Shown one piece after another: positions 1,580 to 64,000 of a DNA stretch of 64,000 nt (the first letter of the stretch is position 1; every line of letters starts with the position of its first letter). Position numbers and translations under genes: made by a program. The notes beneath the pieces are model-generated. The model was given only the letters and a program-made list of their open reading frames with translations, did not search any database and was not told where the DNA came from. The DNA lies in assembly GCA_026195275.1 (NCBI GenBank), contig JAPHQU010000002.1, forward strand, positions 5,964 to 69,963. Reading direction: 5' to 3'. The stretch comes from Minisyncoccota bacterium. Its GTDB lineage: Bacteria > Patescibacteriota > Minisyncoccia > Phycocordibacterales > JABMNX01.

Positions 1580-2864
1580 TACTCGAGCCTACCTCTTCGG
1601 TGCTCTTTTTGTCGGGCTTCTTTCCGGAGCGTATTTCGGGGTGCCTGTGATATTGCCGGTTTCTTATTCATCACCCGAGGTGGCGGATTCGGCGGCTGTT
1701 GCCTCAGTAGAAGAGGAAAGAAAAGAAAGTATATCGCACGCCTCTCATATTCCGACACCTGAAGCAGTGAAAGCGATCTACATGTCGCAGTGCGTCGTGG
1801 GCACACCTTCTTTCCGAGACTCCCTCATCACACTTATTGAGGAGACCGAGCTCAATTCTGTGGTCATCGACATCAAGGACTACACCGGCAAGATTGCGTT
1901 TGAGACTGAACACCCACTCCTCAAGAGTTTTGTCTCTGACGAGTGTGGTGCCCGTGATATGCGTGGTTTTATAGAGACACTCCACGAGAAGGAGATTTAC
2001 GTTATTGGGCGCATCACTGTTTTCCAAGATCCATTTTACGCGGAGATACACCCCGAATTGGCAGTGCAGAGCGTAAGCGGTTCCGGGACCCCGTGGGTCG
2101 ACTACAAAGGGCTCTCGTTTATCGACGTGAGCTCAAAGCCATTCTGGGAATATATCGTTGCGCTCTCAAAAGAATCATACGAAATCGGTTTTGATGAGCT
2201 TAACTACGATTATATTCGCTATCCGTCTGATGGACCGATGAAGGATGCAAAATTCGTAAACGATAACAAATCAGAAGCGCTTGAGATCTTCTTTAAGTAC
2301 CTCTACGAAGAGGTGCACCCGATTGGTGTGAAGATGTCTGCAGACCTCTTCGGGTATACCGCGATCTTCACCAATGACCTCGGCATTGGTCAGCAGCTTG
2401 AGCGCGCGTTGCCATATTTCGATTACATTGCACCAATGGTCTACCCATCGCACTACAACAAAGGTTTTGCCGGACTCGAAAACCCGAACACTGATCCATA
2501 CAAAGTCGTATTCACCTCAATGGAAGAAGCAGTGCGACGTACTCTTGCAAAAGAGACCGTTGTAGAGACTTTGGATGGGGAAGAAGTGTTCACGAGTGAA
2601 GTAATCCCCGCGCATTATGCTGAGGACGTGGGTTTTGTCGCAACCAGTACGCGTCAGGTAGTGACCGGGTACTACACAAAACCCGTCTATGATATACAGA
2701 AGCTTCGCCCCTGGCTTCAGGACTTCGACTACGGCGGTGACTATGACATTGAGGAGGTTCGCGCGCAGATCCAGGCAACGTACGACACCAGCCTCACCAG
2801 TTGGATGTTGTGGAGTCCGAGCAACCGCTATACACGCGGAGCGCTTGAACCCGCCCAAGAATAG
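1533..2864 (+). CDS. membrane-anchored DUF4015-like putative glycoside hydrolase (TIM-barrel-like)
   Basis: N-terminal TM helix; core AVKAIYMS...LNSVVIDIKDY...HEKEIYVIGRITVFQD...PELAV resembles DUF4015 (putative glycosyl hydrolase) family; exact start (1533/1545) uncertain. Confidence 0.5.
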   Translation: MTHMSMERALQEIKNNTRAYLFGALFVGLLSGAYFGVPVILPVSYSSPEVADSAAVASVEEERKESISHASHIPTPEAVKAIYMSQCVVGTPSFRDSLITLIEETELNSVVIDIKDYTGKIAFETEHPLLKSFVSDECGARDMRGFIETLHEKEIYVIGRITVFQDPFYAEIHPELAVQSVSGSGTPWVDYKGLSFIDVSSKPFWEYIVALSKESYEIGFDELNYDYIRYPSDGPMKDAKFVNDNKSEALEIFFKYLYEEVHPIGVKMSADLFGYTAIFTNDLGIGQQLERALPYFDYIAPMVYPSHYNKGFAGLENPNTDPYKVVFTSMEEAVRRTLAKETVVETLDGEEVFTSEVIPAHYAEDVGFVATSTRQVVTGYYTKPVYDIQKLRPWLQDFDYGGDYDIEEVRAQIQATYDTSLTSWMLWSPSNRYTRGALEPAQE

Positions 2865-3001
2865 GAGTACGATAAAAGTGGTATGGAGGTTATCTCCATG
2901 TCTTTCTCGAAAGGAGGTGAGTCCGTTATCTCCCAGAGAGCCAGCATAGCTGGGGTTACCGCTCTCACACGTGCGGTTTCAATAGGCGAAGGAGGTTTTC
3001 A

Positions 3002-3027
3002 TCAAAGGCGCGCCCACAGGGCGCGCC
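3002..3027. terminator. perfect palindromic hairpin aggcgcgcc-cacag-ggcgcgcct
   Basis: 9-bp GC stem seen directly in sequence in the 260-bp noncoding gap after the DUF4015 gene; weak T-run so terminator function uncertain. Confidence 0.35.
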
Positions 3028-3127
3028 TCTTCATATCCCAAAGAGACACTCATTCTCATTGTATAAATAGGTATTTCTTTGTTTTACTCTTTCAACTTTC
3101 AACTTTTTACTTTACACTTGTTGATAT

Positions 3128-5041
3128 ATGGATGATCTCCAAAAAGTAACCTATATCGGCGCCACAGACGCGCGTGGCAAACGACAGCCTTTCGGTATCA
3201 AAGCGCTTGATCGCGCCAAGCACATGTATGTGATCGGCAAGACCGGTATGGGCAAGTCGACCTTGCTTGAGAATATGGCGATCCAGGACATCCAACATGG
3301 GAATGGCTTGGGCTTCATTGACCCACACGGCTCGACCGCTGAGAAACTCCTTGACTACGTGCCCGAGAATCGCATCAAGGACGTGATCTACTTCGCGCCG
3401 TTTGATATGGATTACCCGATCGCCTTTAACGTCATGGAGGATGTTGGCTACGACAAGCGACACCTCGTTGTCTCGGGACTCATGTCGACCTTTAAGAAGA
3501 TCTGGGTTGATGCGTGGTCGGCGCGTATGGAATACATTCTTACCAACGTGCTCCTTGCGCTCCTTGAGTATCCTGATTCGACACTCCTTGATGTGAATAA
3601 GATGCTCACCAACAAAGCCTTCCGCAAGAAAGTGGTTGAGAATATAACCGACCCCATCGTAAAGGATTTCTGGACGGTTGAGTTCGCAGGCTATACCGAC
3701 CGGTACACCCAAGAGGCAACCCCGGCAATTCAGAATAAGATCGGGCAATTTACCAGCAATCCGCTCATCCGCAACATCGTTGGGCAGCCAAAGTCGAGTT
3801 TTGATATGCGTGAAATCTTGGACTCCAAGAAGATATTCATTGCAAACCTCTCCAAAGGGCGCATGGGGGAGACTAACGCCGCACTTCTTGGAAGTATGCT
3901 TACCACCAAGATCTATCTCTCAGCCATGAGCCGCGCCGACGAGCCAGCTTCAGTTCAAGCGAAGCTCCCGCCTTTTTATTTCTATGTGGATGAGTTCCAA
4001 TCAATCGCGAACGAGTCGTTCGCCGACATTCTCTCTGAGGCCAGGAAGTACAAGCTCGCGCTCACAATCGCACACCAGTACGTCGAGCAGATGGAGGAGA
4101 ATGTGCGCAACGCCGTCTTTGGCAACGTGGGTAGCACGATCGCGTTTCGTGTCGGGCCGTTTGATGCTGAAGTGCTTGAAACCATCTTCCAACCCAAGTT
4201 CATGGCGGAAGACCTGGTCGGGCTCGGCTTTGCACAGATCTATCTCACACTTATGATCGATGGGGTTGGGTCAGCCCCTTTTTCCGCAACCACCCTGCCG
4301 CCAATTGAAGAGCCGGAGATTACCTTTAAGGATGAGGCTATCAAAACATCGCGCAGTGCATATGGTCGGTCGCGCGCCGAGGTTGAGCAAGTTATCTCTG
4401 ACCGCAACAAGGAGGAGCTACCTGAGCCGCCGATGGGTGGCATGAAGAAGAAAGGAGGACAAGGAACTCCACAGAAAAACAGTACTCAACCAAAAGGGCC
4501 GATAGTCCACAGCACAAGCGGAGCACGGAAGGAGAAGACAACTATCCCACTTGCTGCGCTTAAAATGCATCAAAAACCGAATGACAAAGGTCCGAGTCCC
4601 GAACAACGATCAGCACTCAAGGAGGCCCTAATGTCGGCTCAAAAAAAGGGAATCACGGGTGCACCCTCTGCTCCAAAGGAGCCTAAGTCACAAGAGAATC
4701 ATTCACAACCGCAGCGAAGAGGCGCTCCTGAGGGGGCAGTTTTACACACTATGGAACGCGATTCACAACAGCCGGAACCAGCTTCAGAAAAAAAGGAACA
4801 AAGACCTACTCCACCTGAAATAAAGAGAGGACAATCTTCAGCACCCCAGAAGGAAGAGCAAAAGGCGGTTCAACATAAAGAAACCGCCGCACAGAAACCG
4901 CCGCAAGGACCTCCCCAAAAAGAGACACCAGAAGAGGTCTCGACACAAACTCTTTCTCCCGAGCAGAAGATTCAAGCAGAAGGCTCGCCCGGAGAGGTGC
5001 CACTTGATGTGCTCGAAGATATATTAAAGGACGACAAATAA
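3128..5041 (+). CDS. soluble FtsK/HerA-superfamily ATPase of the TraD/TraG/VirD4 'type IV secretion DNA-binding domain' type, with ~200-aa disordered K/E/P/Q-rich C-terminal tail
   Basis: Walker A VIGKTGMGKSTLL, Walker B FYFYVDEFQ, LTIAHQY motif; no N-terminal TM helices; low-complexity tail from ~aa 430 ending DVLEDILKDDK. Confidence 0.65.
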   Translation: MDDLQKVTYIGATDARGKRQPFGIKALDRAKHMYVIGKTGMGKSTLLENMAIQDIQHGNGLGFIDPHGSTAEKLLDYVPENRIKDVIYFAPFDMDYPIAFNVMEDVGYDKRHLVVSGLMSTFKKIWVDAWSARMEYILTNVLLALLEYPDSTLLDVNKMLTNKAFRKKVVENITDPIVKDFWTVEFAGYTDRYTQEATPAIQNKIGQFTSNPLIRNIVGQPKSSFDMREILDSKKIFIANLSKGRMGETNAALLGSMLTTKIYLSAMSRADEPASVQAKLPPFYFYVDEFQSIANESFADILSEARKYKLALTIAHQYVEQMEENVRNAVFGNVGSTIAFRVGPFDAEVLETIFQPKFMAEDLVGLGFAQIYLTLMIDGVGSAPFSATTLPPIEEPEITFKDEAIKTSRSAYGRSRAEVEQVISDRNKEELPEPPMGGMKKKGGQGTPQKNSTQPKGPIVHSTSGARKEKTTIPLAALKMHQKPNDKGPSPEQRSALKEALMSAQKKGITGAPSAPKEPKSQENHSQPQRRGAPEGAVLHTMERDSQQPEPASEKKEQRPTPPEIKRGQSSAPQKEEQKAVQHKETAAQKPPQGPPQKETPEEVSTQTLSPEQKIQAEGSPGEVPLDVLEDILKDDK

Positions 5042-27432: not shown

Positions 27433-27675
27433 ATGCCAGCACGAAAACGAAAAGCAGCTAAGAAGACAACACGTCGCAAGGTTGCTAAGAAAGCAGCTAA
27501 GAAGACGACGCGTCGCAAGACAACTCGTCGTAAGGTTGCTAAGAAAGCAGCTAAGAAGACGACGCGTCGCAAGACAACTCGTCGTAAGGTTGCTAAGAAA
27601 GCAGCTAAGAAGACAACTCGTCGTAAGGTTGCTAAGAAAGCAGCAAAAAAGACTACCCGTCGACGAAAGCGATAG
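27433..27675 (+). CDS. histone H1-like / Hc1-like highly basic repeat protein (KKAAKKTTRRK repeats), likely nucleoid-associated DNA-binding protein
   Basis: 80-aa ORF that is ~50% Lys/Arg with tandem repeats; underlying DNA is an imperfect tandem repeat; followed by strong terminator. Confidence 0.6.
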   Translation: MPARKRKAAKKTTRRKVAKKAAKKTTRRKTTRRKVAKKAAKKTTRRKTTRRKVAKKAAKKTTRRKVAKKAAKKTTRRRKR

Positions 27676-33555: not shown

Positions 33556-34605
33556 ATGGACAGTCTTACTATCGGAGGGAAAAACCACATCTCGTCAAAA
33601 CGAGCAGCCGAGCTCATGGGCTACACCCAAGACTACATCGGGCAGCTTGCGCGTGCTGGAAAGATTGACGCAAAGCGCGTCAGTGGTGTGTGGTACATCT
33701 CCGAAGATGAATTCTCTGGCAACGATACTGATCAGAGCAACAATACAGATATTGGCGAGACTAATACTGCTGATCGGGTAGCAGGCGGAAAGACTAATAG
33801 TGGCAACGTAAAAGATGAAAGCGAGACAATCATTCTTGAAGGTGATAAATATATCTCGTCAAAACGAGCAGCCGAGCTCATGGGCTACACCCAAGACTAC
33901 ATCGGGCAACTTTGTCGCGCCGGAAAGATTGAAGCACGACAAGTCGGCAGAAGTTGGTATGTACCAATGACACGTATTGAAGGGGAGCAGGAGATACTGC
34001 AGACGCCAACTAGAGAAGTTAACAACGAAGAAGAAGCTCCTTTCAGGGAACCTACTCTAGAACACACACCTGTTACTAATAAAGGTGCTGATATTTTGAT
34101 TCAATCCGCGTATACCTATACAAATGACGAAAAGCCGCTTATTCCGACACCGCAGCGTGTATCGCGGCCACTTCTCCACGAGATACTTGCTGAAGAGCGT
34201 GATTCCGGGGTCTTGCAGACGGTAGATCGTGATACATATCACACAGAAGACTCTCTTGAACCAACTCCGAGTCGGGTACACGGAGTGATTCCGGCGCAAG
34301 AGACTAAGATCAAGAAGACAGAGAGCAATCCAGTAGCGACTCCTTCTAGACTAAGCACAATACTCCGTGTGGGCACAGTTGCTGCCATGATTGTATTTTC
34401 TTCTCTCTCTTTCTCATATGCCCCATATAAGACGGCATACAGCACACGCGGCGTTGTTGAGGGGGATCAAGTAGAGGTTGCTATTCAAGCAGATGTATTG
34501 CAAGCGGGTGTGGGCAGAGTGGGCGTCAGATCGTCTTTCCTTGAGAAAGGTATAGATTTCCTCTTGAAGACGTTTGGATCAGAGCTAGAATACAAGGCAA
34601 AATAA
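33556..34605 (+). CDS. membrane-tethered protein with two tandem HTH_17 (excisionase/MerR-type) DNA-binding domains and one C-terminal TM helix
   Basis: Two copies of SSKRAAELMGYTQDYIGQL(A/C)RAGKI..(V)..(W)Y motif; hydrophobic LSTILRVGTVAAMIVFSSLSF near C-terminus; a 56-bp segment is repeated 100% identically (33589-33644 and 33853-33908). Confidence 0.6.
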   Translation: MDSLTIGGKNHISSKRAAELMGYTQDYIGQLARAGKIDAKRVSGVWYISEDEFSGNDTDQSNNTDIGETNTADRVAGGKTNSGNVKDESETIILEGDKYISSKRAAELMGYTQDYIGQLCRAGKIEARQVGRSWYVPMTRIEGEQEILQTPTREVNNEEEAPFREPTLEHTPVTNKGADILIQSAYTYTNDEKPLIPTPQRVSRPLLHEILAEERDSGVLQTVDRDTYHTEDSLEPTPSRVHGVIPAQETKIKKTESNPVATPSRLSTILRVGTVAAMIVFSSLSFSYAPYKTAYSTRGVVEGDQVEVAIQADVLQAGVGRVGVRSSFLEKGIDFLLKTFGSELEYKAK

Positions 34606-38549: not shown

Positions 38550-39347
38550 ATGAGCAACTTTCTTTCAACATATTTTGATGAAGCAAGATTATTTTTCCGC
38601 AATTTCACGGAGTGGTTTTTGCTTTTACTTATTTTCACGATTTTCTTCTTTCTGTTTGGTCTCAAAGAGGTCGTGTTCTTTGAGCGCGTCTTCATGCTTC
38701 CACTTCCAACAAACCCATCGTTTGCTGCAGATTTCTTTAATCAGATGGTCGTGGATCTTGTGCCGCATGAGGTGTTGCTCGTGGTGACGGGTCCACTCGC
38801 GGCATTCATTGCACAGATCAAGATCGCGCTTCTCCTGGCGTTTGTCTTTACGCTTCCGGTCTTCTTGTATCGCTTTGTGCACTACCTCTCACCCGCGCTT
38901 CGTGGGCGCGAGAAGCGAACAATCTTTGCTGTTGCGTTCCTGTCGGCGCTCCTCTTTGCTCTCGGCGGACTCTTCTCGTACCTCGTCTTAATTCCACCAA
39001 CGTTTGACATTCTTTACGTATACACCGGTGCAATTGATGCGGCTCCGTTCTTCACTGTAAATGAGTTTGTCGGGCTTGTACTCTCATTTGTACTCGCGAC
39101 CGGTATTCTCTTCCTACTGCCGGTTGTGCAAGTGCTTCTCACGCGTCTCGGAATCGTTTCTCCACAATTTTGGCGTCAGCAATGGCGCTATGCATTGGTA
39201 GTTTTCCTTGTGGTCTCTGCTATAATTACACCAGATGGCAGTGGGGTGACGATGGTGTTTCTCTCACTCCCTATGACAGGTCTCTACCTCATCGGTAGCG
39301 CTGTGGCGCAACCGATGAGGAGTGGAAAGTGGAAAGTGGAAAGTTGA
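38550..39347 (+). CDS. tatC: twin-arginine translocase subunit TatC
   Basis: six TM helices, conserved TatC pattern incl. LPLPTNPSF... and ITPDGSGVTM. Confidence 0.85.
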   Translation: MSNFLSTYFDEARLFFRNFTEWFLLLLIFTIFFFLFGLKEVVFFERVFMLPLPTNPSFAADFFNQMVVDLVPHEVLLVVTGPLAAFIAQIKIALLLAFVFTLPVFLYRFVHYLSPALRGREKRTIFAVAFLSALLFALGGLFSYLVLIPPTFDILYVYTGAIDAAPFFTVNEFVGLVLSFVLATGILFLLPVVQVLLTRLGIVSPQFWRQQWRYALVVFLVVSAIITPDGSGVTMVFLSLPMTGLYLIGSAVAQPMRSGKWKVES

Positions 39348-39375
39348 AAGTATGAAAATAACTTTTAACCTTACA

Positions 39376-39414
39376 AACCTAATACCTAATTACTAAAACC
39401 TAACACCTAATAAT
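39376..39414. repeat. short tandem ACCTAAT-like repeats (5 copies) in tatC-tatA spacer
   Basis: aaccttacaaacctaatacctaattactaaaacctaacacctaataat read directly. Confidence 0.5.
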
Positions 39415-39981: not shown

Positions 39982-40011
39982 AGGCAAAGCCTTTATTCGC
40001 GAAAACTTTCC

Positions 40012-40037
40012 AGTTGAAAGTTATAAAGTTCATAAAG
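40012..40037. repeat. left inverted repeat flanking Avd/IVS-like gene (agttgaaagttataaagttcataaag)
   Basis: matches reverse complement of 40400-40424 at 22/25 positions. Confidence 0.7.
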
Positions 40038-40054
40038 TTAGAAAGTGTGCGACG

Positions 40055-40399
40055 ATGAAGATAGAAAAATTTGAAGATATCCTCGCGTGGCAGAAAGCTC
40101 AAAAACTGACTCTTTTTGTCTACAAAACATTTCGTAACAATAAGGATTTTGGCTTTAAAAATCAGATAGAGAGAGCGGCGGTCTCAGTGATGAATAATAT
40201 AGCCGAAGGATTTGAGCGCCAGACAAACAAGGAGCTGACAAACTTCCTGTTTATCGCAAAAGGTTCTTGTGGAGAGGTTAGGTCTATGCTCTATGTTGCT
40301 CTTGAGTTAAAATGTATTACAAAAGCAGACTTTGACGAAATGTATAAAATGTCGGTGGAGATATCAAAGATGCTTTCGGGATTGATCAAGACTTTATAA
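40055..40399 (+). CDS. four-helix-bundle protein of the 23S rRNA intervening-sequence protein / Avd-like family
   Basis: kvWQKAqkL...KNQIERAAVSVMNNIAEGFERQT..FLFIAKGSCGEV..L pattern matches the IVS-protein family consensus; track ORF start 39956 is an upstream extension. Confidence 0.7.
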   Translation: MKIEKFEDILAWQKAQKLTLFVYKTFRNNKDFGFKNQIERAAVSVMNNIAEGFERQTNKELTNFLFIAKGSCGEVRSMLYVALELKCITKADFDEMYKMSVEISKMLSGLIKTL

Positions 40400-40424
40400 C
40401 TTTACAAACTTTTAACTTTCAACT
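40400..40424. repeat. right inverted repeat flanking Avd/IVS-like gene (ctttacaaacttttaactttcaact)
   Basis: reverse complement matches 40012-40037. Confidence 0.7.
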
Positions 40425-40433
40425 CGTTTCTCT

Positions 40434-51406: not shown

Positions 51407-51493
51407 GTTCCTTCCGCAACAATGCAGTGTTTCCAATAACACAGCATCACCACTTCACTTTCCACCCGCACTTTCCACCCTCATTCCCTCATT

Positions 51494-51675
51494 CATACGA
51501 TATATCGTATGACCCCACCTTCACTCCACCCCCACTCCCTCATTCATACGATATATCGTATGACCCCATCTTCACTCCACCCCCACTTCTTCATTCATAC
51601 GATATATCGTATGAGAATTGTTATACACATTACGCATTGATTGCCCACTGAAGATTTCATACGATATATCGTATA
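51494..51675. repeat. array of four copies (~54-bp spacing) of perfect 18-bp palindrome CATACGATATATCGTATG with C-rich spacers, immediately upstream of trpR-like gene
   Basis: copies at 51494-51511, 51545-51562, 51596-51613, 51658-51675 (last 17/18); spacers are near-identical (not CRISPR-like). Confidence 0.85.
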
Positions 51676-52156: not shown

Positions 52157-52182
52157 CATTCATACGATATATCGTATGAATG
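52157..52182. repeat. 26-bp perfect palindrome CATTCATACGATATATCGTATGAATG (fifth local copy) downstream of trpR-like gene
   Basis: read directly. Confidence 0.85.
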
Positions 52183-52266
52183 GTATGTGATTCACAAGTG
52201 TGCTGTGGGGTTGGTTATTGTATGAATGGTATGTGATTTACAAGTGTGCCGTATGGTTGGTAAGAT
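52175..52266. repeat. tandem direct repeat, 2 x 46 bp (tatgaatggtatgtgatt[c/t]acaagtgtgc...)
   Basis: two adjacent near-identical units just upstream of the dehydrogenase gene. Confidence 0.8.
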
Positions 52267-61686: not shown

Positions 61687-62454
61687 ATGCTCCAAAGGCA
61701 CTTTTTTGGTATACTCAGGCGTATGACTGCTGAACATACAGCACACATACACCCCATCACGCGCATGATCCGCGAAATAAACGCGATTTTTGGCGAGATG
61801 GGTTTTACCTTTGCAGAAGGTCCTGAGATCGAGACCGAGCACTACAACTTTGACGCACTCAATGTGCCGGCTAATCACCCCGCGCGTGATATGTGGGATA
61901 CTTTCTGGCTTAAACCACTTAACGCAAAGAAACTCCTCCGCACCCACACCTCACCCGTCCAGGTGCGCTATATGGAAGCGCACAAGGACGATCTCCCGAT
62001 CCGGATTATTGCGCCGGGCAAGGTCTATCGACATGAGGCGACTGACATGACACATGAAGCGCAGTTTTACCAAGTCGAGGGGCTTATGATTGGGAAAGAT
62101 GTGACCTTAGCGCACCTCAAGGGGGTACTCACCACCTTTTTTGAGAAGTTCTTCGGCGCGGATGTCGAGGTCAGGCTTCGTCCGAGCTATTTCCCGTTTG
62201 TGGAGCCGGGGGTTGAGATTGATATGCGCTTGGTGGGGGAGAATGTACCCGAGCGGCTCGCGGGGAAGTGGATTGAGATTATGGGCGCCGGCATGGTCCA
62301 TCCGAAGGTGCTTGAGAGCTCAGGTATTGACCCGCGAGAATGGCAGGGTTTTGCGTTCGGTACCGGTGTTGAGCGGCTCGGCATGCTTAAGTACGGCATT
62401 GATGACACGCGCCTCTTTCACACAGGCGACCTCAGGTTCGTCAATCAGTTCTAA
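61687..62454 (+). CDS. pheS: phenylalanine--tRNA ligase alpha subunit (short form lacking N-terminal domain)
   Basis: HPITR motif 1, class II motifs 2/3 (FRPSYFPFVEPGVEID, GFAFGTGVERLGMLKYG); possible start at Met13 (61723). Confidence 0.85.
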   Translation: MLQRHFFGILRRMTAEHTAHIHPITRMIREINAIFGEMGFTFAEGPEIETEHYNFDALNVPANHPARDMWDTFWLKPLNAKKLLRTHTSPVQVRYMEAHKDDLPIRIIAPGKVYRHEATDMTHEAQFYQVEGLMIGKDVTLAHLKGVLTTFFEKFFGADVEVRLRPSYFPFVEPGVEIDMRLVGENVPERLAGKWIEIMGAGMVHPKVLESSGIDPREWQGFAFGTGVERLGMLKYGIDDTRLFHTGDLRFVNQF

Positions 62455-62494
62455 ATTGGAGAGTAGAAAATGGGAGGTAGAAGATAGATACAAT

Positions 62495-62851
62495 ATGTCA
62501 AAAAGTTATGAAAATTTGGATATATGGAAAAATGGAACAGACTTTGCAACTCTGGTCTATAAAGTTACGTTGGATTTTCCAAAATCTGAACAGTTTGGTA
62601 TCACATCTCAATTGCGCCGCGCGGTAGTTTCCGCCCCTTTGAACATTGCCGAGGGATCAAGTCGTACTTCTAAGAAAGATTATGCTCGATTCATAGAGAT
62701 AGCCATAGGTTCTCTGAATGAGGTGGTAAGTTTACTCGTTATATCCAAGAATCTTGACTATCTAACAGTACAAAAGTATGAAGAAATGAAGGAAGCAGCC
62801 TTGGGTATCGGTCGGTCGCTTGGCGCTTTCAAGAAATATCTATTAAAATAG
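62495..62851 (+). CDS. second four-helix-bundle 23S-rRNA-IVS-protein / Avd-like family protein
   Basis: YENLDIWKNGTDFATLVYKVTLDFPKSEQFGITSQLRRAVVSAPLNIAEGSSRTSKKDY...IGSLNEV matches family consensus; sits between pheS and pheT. Confidence 0.7.
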   Translation: MSKSYENLDIWKNGTDFATLVYKVTLDFPKSEQFGITSQLRRAVVSAPLNIAEGSSRTSKKDYARFIEIAIGSLNEVVSLLVISKNLDYLTVQKYEEMKEAALGIGRSLGAFKKYLLK

Positions 62852-62878
62852 CTAACTACATTCTACTTTCTACCTTCT

Positions 62879-64000
62879 ATGCTCATATCTTACAACTGGC
62901 TCCAGACATATTTTGATACAAAGCTCCCAACTCCCGACGAGCTTGCTGAGAAGCTCACTTTCCATTCGTTTGAGATTGAGGGGGTCGAGAAGACAGAGAA
63001 CGACACAGTGATCGATGTAGATGTCTTGCCAAACCGTGCACACGATTGTCTCTCGCATCGTGGCATCGCGAAAGAACTCTCGGTTCTCTTTGAGATACCG
63101 CTTAATCGTGATGTGCTTCGTGAAGACGAGCCGGAGTTCTCTGAGTCGAAGCTTCTCTCGGTTGATATCGAGGACTCTCTTTTGTGCCGCAGGTATAGCG
63201 CTGCGGTTATTCGCGGGGTAAAAGTCGCACCATCACCCGAGTGGCTCAAAGCGCGTCTCGAGGCGCTTGGACAGCGCTCGATAAACAACATTGTGGACGC
63301 GACCAACTACGTCATGTTTGGGCTTGGACAGCCACTTCACGCATTTGACATGAAGAAGCTTGAGGAGCGGGACGGTGCGTATCGTATTAACGTGCGTTCA
63401 GCACATGACGGGGAGAGTATCACGACACTCACTGGTGAAGGGTATGAACTCACACCTCAGACGCTCCTCATTACCGACGGTAATAGTGACGCACCGATCG
63501 GGATTGCGGGCATTAAAGGTGGGAAGATAGCCGAGGTTGATCAAGAAACGACCGACATTGTGCTTGAGTCTGCGAATTTCAACCCGGCACACACGCGCAA
63601 AAGCTCGCAGATACTCAAGCTTCGCACTGATGCGTCGACTCGTTTTGAGAATGAACTTGCGCCGGAGTATGCGCCATACGGCCTTCGTGAAGTGGTTGCG
63701 CTCATCCTCGATATCGCCGGCGGCGAAGCTGAGGGGTATGTTGATATATTTCCACGACAGCAGAGTATTCCATACATAACAGGAGTATCACTTGAGGAGA
63801 TCAACAGTCTTTTAGGCACTTCTGTGAAGGAACAGGATGTCGAGCAAATACTCGATCGTTTTGGATTCGTGTTTGAGAGGGTGTCGCCGATTGACCGGGT
63901 CCTTGAAGAAGCTCGGAAACACGAGGGTGTGTCGTATAAGTATGGAGCAAGTATTCGGTTTGACGCACCCAAGGCATTCGATTGCTCGTCGTTTGTCTCA
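62879..64000 (+). CDS. pheT: phenylalanine--tRNA ligase beta subunit (5' part, continues beyond window)
   Basis: MLISYNWLQTYFDTKLPTPDELAEKLTFHSFEIEGVE (tRNA-binding domain), B3/4 domain. Confidence 0.85.
   Translation, partial: MLISYNWLQTYFDTKLPTPDELAEKLTFHSFEIEGVEKTENDTVIDVDVLPNRAHDCLSHRGIAKELSVLFEIPLNRDVLREDEPEFSESKLLSVDIEDSLLCRRYSAAVIRGVKVAPSPEWLKARLEALGQRSINNIVDATNYVMFGLGQPLHAFDMKKLEERDGAYRINVRSAHDGESITTLTGEGYELTPQTLLITDGNSDAPIGIAGIKGGKIAEVDQETTDIVLESANFNPAHTRKSSQILKLRTDASTRFENELAPEYAPYGLREVVALILDIAGGEAEGYVDIFPRQQSIPYITGVSLEEINSLLGTSVKEQDVEQILDRFGFVFERVSPIDRVLEEARKHEGVSYKYGASIRFDAPKAFDCSSFVS

Follow-up and report, generated by a model that had tools for sequence, protein, structure and literature searches.

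The phenylalanyl-tRNA synthetase genes pheS and pheT usually lie side by side, so that a gene found between them raises the question of what kind of element it belongs to and how the operon tolerates it. We addressed this question in a 64,000-nt stretch of contig JAPHQU010000002.1 (assembly GCA_026195275.1) from a Minisyncoccota bacterium, referred to here as the window. An earlier note on this DNA had described a 424-bp gap between pheS and pheT, occupied by a gene for a 118-aa four-helix-bundle protein and flanked by inverted GTAGAA/TTCTAC half-sites; the gap, the gene and the half-sites were all recovered in our analysis (Table 1). The best reading of this cassette is that it is the same kind of element as the intervening sequences (IVSs) of bacterial rRNA, located in an mRNA. 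On balance, we favour as the probable explanation an IVS-type cassette that would be co-transcribed with pheST, with a stem joining the pheS stop codon to the pheT start codon and serving as a substrate of RNase III, as a means of keeping the two genes coupled, or as both.

The cassette and its predicted closing stem

The 118-aa protein encoded between pheS and pheT belongs to the S23p/IVP family, and its gene is called the IVP gene below. It matched PF05635 (23S_rRNA_IVP) with 115.6 bits (E 1.5e-33, cut-off 33.8) and TIGR02436 (four helix bundle protein) with 109.3 bits (cut-off 24). The AlphaFold (AF2) monomer model, built on 30 homologues, is a four-helix bundle with a pLDDT of 96, which superimposes on XCC0516 (PDB 2GSC) with a TM-score (TM) of 0.94 and 36% identity, on BT_0352 (PDB 2RLD) with a TM of 0.80 and on the Avd protein of a diversity-generating retroelement (DGR; PDB 4DWL) with a TM of 0.78 and 11% identity; phmmer also linked the protein to 2GSC (E 3e-21). 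Members of the family share the conserved motif GxxRxxxSxxxNxxE (PMC3936711), of which R42, S46, N50 and E53 are invariant in the homologue alignment, the first position being Q39 instead of G in the pheST clade. A 100% identical protein is recorded at NCBI as 'four helix bundle protein' in a Candidatus Pacebacteria metagenome-assembled genome, and the PADLOC defence models gave no match to the pheST protein. Comparison of the IVP gene with its homologue at locus L001 yielded a dN of 0.079 and a dS of 1.58. Judged by the resulting dN/dS of 0.05, the gene is under strong purifying selection and is thus a working gene, unlike the decaying ORF (open reading frame) of the Coxiella rRNA IVS.

The half-sites lie at 62462–68 (AGTAGAA), 62476–82 (GGTAGAA), 62861–67 (TTCTACT) and 62868–74 (TTCTACC), within more extensive, imperfect inverted repeats (19 nt at 79%; 18 nt at 78%). 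The leader that precedes the IVP ATG has the form of a degenerate heptamer array (GTAGAAA / ATGGGAG / GTAGAAG / ATAGATA). The two arms pair in blocks of 3+6+12+3 = 24 bp, and the 3' arm overlaps the pheT start codon (62879–62881) and codon 2. Pairing of the 5' spacer with the 3' spacer, extended by 6 nt into pheT, gave a duplex of −25.8 kcal/mol, compared with −15.3 ± 3.3 in 2000 shuffles (z −3.2, p 0.002). Both the minimum free energy (MFE) and the centroid structures of the whole insert contain the closing stem, and the full-length MFE fold places the first two bases of the pheT AUG, A and U, opposite nucleotides +10 and +9 past the pheS stop. A stem enclosing the whole insert, as in rRNA IVSs, is predicted from the flanks. 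Full-length folds of the seven distinct pheS|IVP|pheT loci all show long-range pairing between the pheS-stop region and part of the segment from −12 to −1 upstream of the pheT start. Units of the same GTAGAAA/GTGGAAA/GTTGAAA type, with TTCTAC as their counterpart, recur in the orthologous loci L001, L003, L167, L174, L005 and L169; the arms of L171 and L175 have a different vocabulary and are still self-complementary.

The GC content of the cassette (about 0.38–0.39) is below that of pheS (0.535) and pheT (0.51), and the IVP gene is poorer in GC than both of its neighbours in seven out of seven pheS|IVP|pheT loci. The gene order in the window is rpsB-tsf-small ORF-tRNA-Thr-glycosyltransferase-ORF-pheS-IVP-pheT, an order seen again in related Patescibacteria. 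There is no rRNA at the site of the cassette, and the sole Rfam match across the window is a tRNA. The description of the cassette as a discrete IVS-like insert that splits an otherwise adjacent pheS-pheT pair is supported.

Table 1. Positions in the window of the pheST cassette, its host genes and the paralogous cassette
Feature	Position	Strand	Details
pheS (phenylalanyl-tRNA synthetase alpha chain), upstream host gene	61687..62454	+	PF01409, E 5.3e-97; TAA stop 62452-62454
Whole cassette filling the pheS|pheT junction	62455..62878	+	Exactly 424 bp
5' arm	62459..62487	+	Purine-rich, approximately heptameric units, GAG-AGTAGAA-AA-TGGGAGGTAGAA-GA-TAG; begins 5 nt past the pheS stop
Gene for the 118-aa four-helix-bundle protein, S23p/IVP family	62495..62851	+	PF05635 / TIGR02436
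3' arm	62856..62884	+	TTCTAC units, rich in pyrimidines, that complement the 5' arm
pheT (beta chain), 5' part, downstream host gene, exits the window	62879..64000	+	PF03483 B3_4, E 2.7e-58; B5
Paralogous cassette 1	40010..40427	+	Arms about 40010-40046 and 40400-40427; coding sequence 40055-40399 (114 aa)

The 23S rRNA IVS of Coxiella burnetii is 428 nt long, encodes an S23p ORF and is closed by a 28-bp terminal stem that RNase III cuts mid-way; AGAAGA and two or three tandem GACAGAT heptamers precede its ATG, and its GC content is 36%, versus 42.5% for the genome (PMC4990558). S23p ORFs also occur in the IVSs of Leptospira and Brucella (PMC4990558), and 23S_rRNA_IVP ORFs are found in 16S and 23S insertions of bacteria of the candidate phyla radiation (bioRxiv 10.1101/2024.02.27.582315). 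With the Coxiella element, the pheST cassette shares an S23p / PF05635 protein, its size (424 versus 428 nt), a purine-rich leader in which tandem heptamers precede the ATG, and a GC content below that of the host. With rRNA IVSs, it has in common complementary termini, whose stem (predicted here) encloses the element, and a sense orientation within a highly expressed host transcript. The host site is different, being an intercistronic junction of a protein-coding operon and not an rRNA helix, so that the mRNA would be processed, or coupling altered, where an rRNA IVS fragments the rRNA. The two ORFs also differ, that of Coxiella decaying and that of pheST showing the signature of strong purifying selection. 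RNase III cleavage, the step that excises IVSs from a transcript without religation, has been demonstrated for rRNA IVSs, and we infer it for the pheST cassette. We do not file the cassette as an rRNA IVS, because all architectural features match except the rRNA location.

In the mechanism that we propose, the cassette would lack a promoter of its own and would be transcribed as part of the pheST mRNA. Alongside this co-transcription reading, we note that no intrinsic terminator was found inside the cassette and that promoter-like matches within it occur at chance level only. Pairing of the arms would create a rod of ~24 bp, or more if the outer helix is counted, looping out the whole insert and bringing the pheS stop codon beside the pheT start codon. 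The insertion would then be tolerable by either of two routes or by both. By route (a), RNase III would cut the stem, separating the pheS and pheT mRNAs and releasing the IVP message; a search by signature found no RNase III gene in the window. By route (b), a ribosome terminating at the pheS stop would melt the outer stem and expose the pheT AUG, whose pairing partners lie 9–10 nt past that stop, and translational coupling would survive the 424-nt insert. For the protein, a precedent exists in DGRs, where all five protomers of the Avd pentamer hold on to an 11-bp RNA stem-loop encoded beside avd, and where the DGR RNA contains a long-range duplex between the 3' end of avd and the spacer (bioRxiv 10.1101/2023.10.23.563531). 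By analogy with Avd, its structural homologue, the pheST protein, which is basic (pI 9.3) and presumed to be a pentamer, probably binds nucleic acid, and plausibly its own periodic stem.

Inverted heptamer arrays as a family-wide trait

A metagenome scan with the homologue alignment returned 80 further loci, whose proteins are at most 50% identical to the window protein. Family statistics were computed on 82–85 loci outside the pheST operon, depending on the test, with 90 nt upstream and 90 nt downstream taken for pairing. At the 82 loci with both flanks, cognate flanks paired with a median energy of −42.8 kcal/mol, compared with −27.7 for non-cognate flanks, −30.2 for reversed partners and −30.6 for shuffles, and cognate pairing reached z <= −3 in 44 of them. 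Both flanks have a period of 7, with an identity of 0.43 at lag 7 and 0.39–0.40 at lag 14, versus ~0.27 at other lags and 0.25 in the control region. Period-7 arrays of at least 21 nt, usually with 3–5 copies, were detected in 53 out of 83 loci and in none of 83 shuffles. The heptamer varies by locus (GTTGAGA, CAGGCAG, GGGGTCT and others), but within a locus the 5' and 3' arrays are reverse complements of each other. The 5' arrays are poor in C (10%) and the 3' arrays are poor in G (11%). None of the 40 family loci sampled for rRNA contained any. The design (heptamer)n-ORF-(reverse-complement heptamer)n is a family-wide trait in non-rRNA contexts.

In 82% of the family loci the neighbouring genes are co-oriented, and the IVP ATG lies a median of 68 nt past the upstream stop codon. 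Five loci were inspected individually. Three of them (L121, L160 and L128) are among the cassettes that split partner genes and have strong heptamer arms, separating the small and large subunits of methylmalonyl-CoA mutase, rmlB and rmlA, and an HlyD-type adaptor and an ABC ATPase, respectively; in the other two, the cassette splits an epimerase|unknown pair and a peptidase|MFS (major facilitator superfamily) pair. A published member of the family is located between cmr3 and cmr2 (PMC3936711). IVP genes were also found among tRNA genes, either between two tRNAs (L034:198-849) or followed by a tRNA and then pheS (L169:3001-3466), which indicates that stable-RNA operons other than those of rRNA also host IVP genes.

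The role of the ORF carried by some bacterial rRNA IVSs has been open since the early 1990s, and the family is functionally uncharacterised (PMC4990558; bioRxiv 10.1101/2024.02.27.582315). The pheST locus and the 80-odd family loci show that the rRNA IVS design, an ORF accompanied by inverted heptamer arrays, is standard in this gene family, which resides mostly in ordinary operons and often exactly between the two subunit genes of one enzyme. The Coxiella-type rRNA IVS can thus be reframed as one habitat of a more general cassette. We extend this, as a tentative proposal about which we have considerable doubt, to the idea that PF05635 genes with inverted heptamer arms form a widespread, as yet undescribed class of 'intercistronic IVS cassettes', of which the ORF-bearing rRNA IVSs of the Coxiella type are just the best-known special case. 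Such cassettes may settle in junctions of conserved co-translated genes (pheS|pheT, mutase subunits, rmlB|rmlA, cmr3|cmr2, rRNA/tRNA spacers), where they may be harmless since pairing of their arms would close the junction again in the transcript. By analogy with Avd, the pentamer may recognise the 3–5 periodic heptamers of its own stem, controlling processing, translation or spread. This view of the family predicts RNase III cleavage or stem-dependent translational coupling in an mRNA, binding of the pentamer to a period-7 stem and recurrent occupation of conserved gene junctions. A literature search found no description of family-wide heptamer arms, most subscription journals being outside its coverage, so that an earlier description is possible.

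Relatives of the locus and competing explanations

The genomic context was checked for nine of the closest homologues, 52–85% identical to the pheST protein. All nine are from other Patescibacteria, where they occupy the rpsB-tsf-pheS-pheT neighbourhood. In seven cases the gene sits precisely between pheS and pheT (L001/L002, L003/L004, L167, L170, L171–173, L174 and L175/176), and the remaining two are nearby instead, immediately ahead of pheS at L169 and upstream of rpsB at L005. At L170, the IVP gene shares the junction with an NYN (nuclease) gene. The earlier note had proposed a comparison of pheS-pheT spacing among relatives, and empty sites were indeed seen among the 80 loci returned with PheS as query and one genome per species. 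In the two closest species representatives, whose PheS proteins are 77% and 73% identical, the genes are separated by 6 bp (L007) or overlap by 4 bp (L008). Most of the Patescibacteria pheST loci examined have gaps between −4 and +24 bp, in agreement with the note's view that the two genes are normally adjacent. According to the same note, relatives carrying the gene in conserved synteny and lacking the flanking repeats would speak for an ancient resident gene rather than an insertion. The synteny was found; the repeats are present, contrary to the second part, and empty sites occur as well.

On a neighbour-joining (NJ) tree of PheS and PheT, loci with an IVP gene are interspersed with empty ones. 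Pairwise identities of IVP do not follow those of PheS, although this is weak evidence (rho 0.16; IVP values are saturated near 55–60%), compared with a rho of 0.74 between PheS and PheT, and the closest relative of the L171 IVP is still that of L003, the sister of its host. Divergence at 4-fold sites was lower in the cassette than in its flanks in both pairs tested (reported as 0.54 versus 0.28/0.30 and 0.59 versus 0.41/0.43), and nucleotide identity peaks over the 3' arm and the start of pheT. The lower synonymous divergence may reflect lateral exchange with short co-converted flanks, or else RNA constraint or biased composition. Together with the IVS-type reading, and with the same degree of confidence, we consider it probable from these comparisons that the pheST cassette is an old, site-faithful resident with a patchy distribution shaped by repeated loss, lateral re-insertion or both, and that it is not multiplying now.

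Variable small cargo makes the pheS|pheT junction a hot spot, as observed at L009, L021, L025, L031–L036, L039, L040, L043 and L170. This cargo includes a GIY-YIG-like ORF (L035), a NUDIX-like gene beside a different IVP (L025) and, elsewhere, methyltransferase-like genes of ~200 aa and highly charged proteins of 140–180 aa; no heptamer arms were found on the non-IVP junction genes. Free-standing homing-endonuclease genes of the phage T4 seg/mob type also insert between conserved genes. The pheST IVP resembles them as a small, selfish-looking gene between conserved co-transcribed genes with a patchy distribution in relatives, and the GIY-YIG-like ORF occupies the same junction in another Patescibacteria genome. 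Unlike homing endonucleases, however, the IVP has no nuclease motifs or known catalytic activity.

Some junctions hold inserts of 128–255 nt that lack an ORF (L045:3700-3827, L022:3682-3816, L034:3751-3911 and L029:3763-4017). The ends of the first three form a stem from the pheS stop to the pheT ATG; in L045, TCCCTCACCCTTCAAA pairs with TTTGAAGGGTGAGGG immediately before the ATG. The L029 insert has no such stem (duplex only −22.7 kcal/mol) and shares a conserved core with that of L034. Rfam returned no family for the ORF-less pheS|pheT inserts of other genomes. At L174 (1803-2201), the IVP gene lacks its stop codon and reads through the TTCTAC 3' arm, which gives the protein a C-terminal tail (...STLYLLLSTPHL) and an ATGA overlap with the pheT start.

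Several results weigh against the IVS-type reading set out above. The energy of the whole-insert fold is ordinary (z only −1.15), and the pheST stem is imperfect, with three internal loops and three G.U pairs, and only moderately better than shuffles. A Shine-Dalgarno-like GGAGG, 17 nt from the IVP ATG, is located inside the stem. Arm covariation within the pheST clade is weak (permutation 297/5040), because most members share the GTAGAAA motif and their arms are largely interchangeable. Sense and antisense arm duplexes do not differ in energy (p 0.23), and arm mismatches, counted as G.U against A.C, show no excess of G.U on the sense strand (41 versus 37 on the antisense strand); given the lack of a strand-specific signature, a role of the arms at the DNA level is equally compatible with these data. 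As for the history of the cassette, the NJ tree carries no support values, and the lower 4-fold divergence of the cassette holds even where its protein is the more diverged.

The absence of sense/antisense asymmetry is the starting point for the alternative in which the arms act as DNA: the inverted heptamer arrays would serve the IVP, or a recombinase supplied in trans, as sites of binding or recombination and would mobilise or regulate the cassette. We regard this as unlikely. In its favour, short tandem repeats in inverted orientation typically mark protein-binding ends, the cassette is patchily distributed, empty sites being present, and synonymous divergence lies below that of the flanking genes in two locus pairs. 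In addition, GTNGAAA-type heptamer arrays without an ORF occur elsewhere in the window (3083-3117 and 39322-39356), and a 14-mer pattern search of the window gave 15 matches where 7.0 ± 2.5 were expected. Comparable arrangements are known from transposon ends, which contain multiple binding sites, and from RAYTs, which are homologues of HUH transposases, and their REPs, which are palindromes of ~35 nt. The pheST gene likewise stands between inverted copies of a short repeat, with related repeats elsewhere in the window that have no gene; here, however, a helical bundle stands in place of a transposase homologue, the repeats come as tandem heptamers and the extra arrays in the window are few. 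Against a DNA-level role, we found no nearby recombinase or transposase, no target-site duplications and no near-identical copies, and the arms span exactly the distance from the upstream stop to the downstream start, suggesting a constraint from the expression of the flanking genes. Three of the ORF-less inserts at the same junction are also closed by stems up to the pheT ATG, and the rRNA counterparts have been shown experimentally to be processed by RNase III as RNA stems (PMC4990558).

If the IVP gene were an ordinary resident of the operon with a function tied to phenylalanyl-tRNA synthetase, as an accessory or regulatory subunit, and the repeats an incidental spacer, its strong purifying selection and its position between pheS and pheT in at least seven distinct loci, with protein identities down to 52%, would be readily understood. 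Nevertheless, we consider this improbable. The closest species representatives and the majority of Patescibacteria pheST loci lack the gene, its close homologues are also found upstream of pheS or of rpsB, its GC content is lower than that of the host genes and other genes at the junction lack such arms. Moreover, the same family occurs with its arms in unrelated operons and in rRNA (PMC4990558; bioRxiv 10.1101/2024.02.27.582315; PMC3936711).

The presence of two cassettes within 64 kb led the earlier note to suggest an actively spreading element, and the inverted terminal repeats, the low GC and the empty sites in relatives also speak for one. A mobile element that is now transposing, or was recently duplicated, has in our view only a slim chance of being the explanation, and the suggestion did not hold up. 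The two window proteins are 33% identical (pairwise BLASTP) and their arms are different; given this identity, the cassettes are old paralogues rather than recent copies. The same lineage has long been at the junction, where it is found in several genera, with a dN/dS of 0.05. A tblastn search of the window with the pheST protein gave no second significant match and no near-identical copy, and no second copy above 33% identity was found there as a mark of transposition. A recent duplication of the two cassettes was rejected on the tblastn and BLASTP results. No direct repeat was seen at the borders of the pheST cassette, the empty sites being too diverged for exact borders to be assigned.

The earlier note had also labelled the protein Avd-like, and the fold does resemble Avd (PDB 4DWL, 8UBE), both proteins being basic four-helix bundles, with weak matches to the bAvd and DivGenRetAVD models. 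That the gene is the Avd of a DGR is nevertheless very improbable, and we discard the label. The scores are below the model cut-offs (35 bits versus 80 for NF033474 and 31.8 versus 40 for PF22296), pheS and pheT directly flank the gene, heptamer arms are not a described DGR feature, tblastn with a reverse transcriptase found none in the window and no pair resembling template and variable repeats was present near the cassette. The last explanation, that the inverted half-sites arose by chance in an AT- and purine-rich spacer, draws on the fact that spacers rich in purines and in pyrimidines retain appreciable pairing after shuffling or reversal (−15 to −20 kcal/mol), but it has next to no probability left and is effectively refuted by the family-wide statistics, with p values of 0.002 at pheST and 0.0025 at cassette 1, a motif that is kept in orthologous loci and period-7 inverted arrays that are absent from shuffles.

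The second cassette and other repeats in the window

The second cassette of the window, cassette 1, encodes a protein that matches PF05635 (E 2.7e-34), as the pheST protein does, and the assignment of both to one family in the earlier note is correct. Its arms form a near-perfect inverted repeat of ~27 nt with GTTGAAA-like units (duplex p 0.0025), and the closing stem is present in both the MFE and the centroid folds.

One of the ORF-less arrays is found at 39322-39412, where (GTGGAAA)x3-GTTGAAA constitutes the last tatC codons and extends into the tatC-tatA spacer; ACCTAAT-like repeats rich in pyrimidines come next and reach the tatA ATG. The GTGGAAA/GTTGAAA units resemble the 5' arm of an IVP cassette. 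The array (39322-39356) was rejected as an ORF-less hairpin, as it has no stable fold (z +0.75), and it may be the remnant of a lost cassette. The other array belongs to a 263-nt ORF-less spacer (2865-3127) between a DUF4015 glycosyl-hydrolase-like gene and a type IV coupling-protein-like gene. This spacer folds far better than shuffles (z −3.5), contains a GC-rich hairpin and ends with TTTCAAC heptamers (3083-3117) directly before the ATG at 3128. Rfam returned no family for window positions 2800-3200, and the spacer could be an ORF-less IVS-like insert or another RNA.

Repeats of other kinds were also observed. Three tandem 51-nt repeats, each with the palindrome TTCATACGATATATCGTATGA, are located at 51474-51626, with a related copy at 134-184, and a separate 46-nt tandem pair is found at 52170-52261; all of them look like operator or iteron sites. 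Just upstream of secA, an ORF made of 39/54-nt tandem repeats (27433-27675) encodes a peptide rich in Lys, Arg and Thr (AAKKTTRRKVAKK...), resembling the DNA-binding tail of histone H1-like proteins. Finally, a 97-nt direct repeat (33576-33936), with copies 87% identical and 264 nt apart, lies inside the ORF at 33556-34605, distant from both cassettes, and represents an internal duplication of a protein segment.

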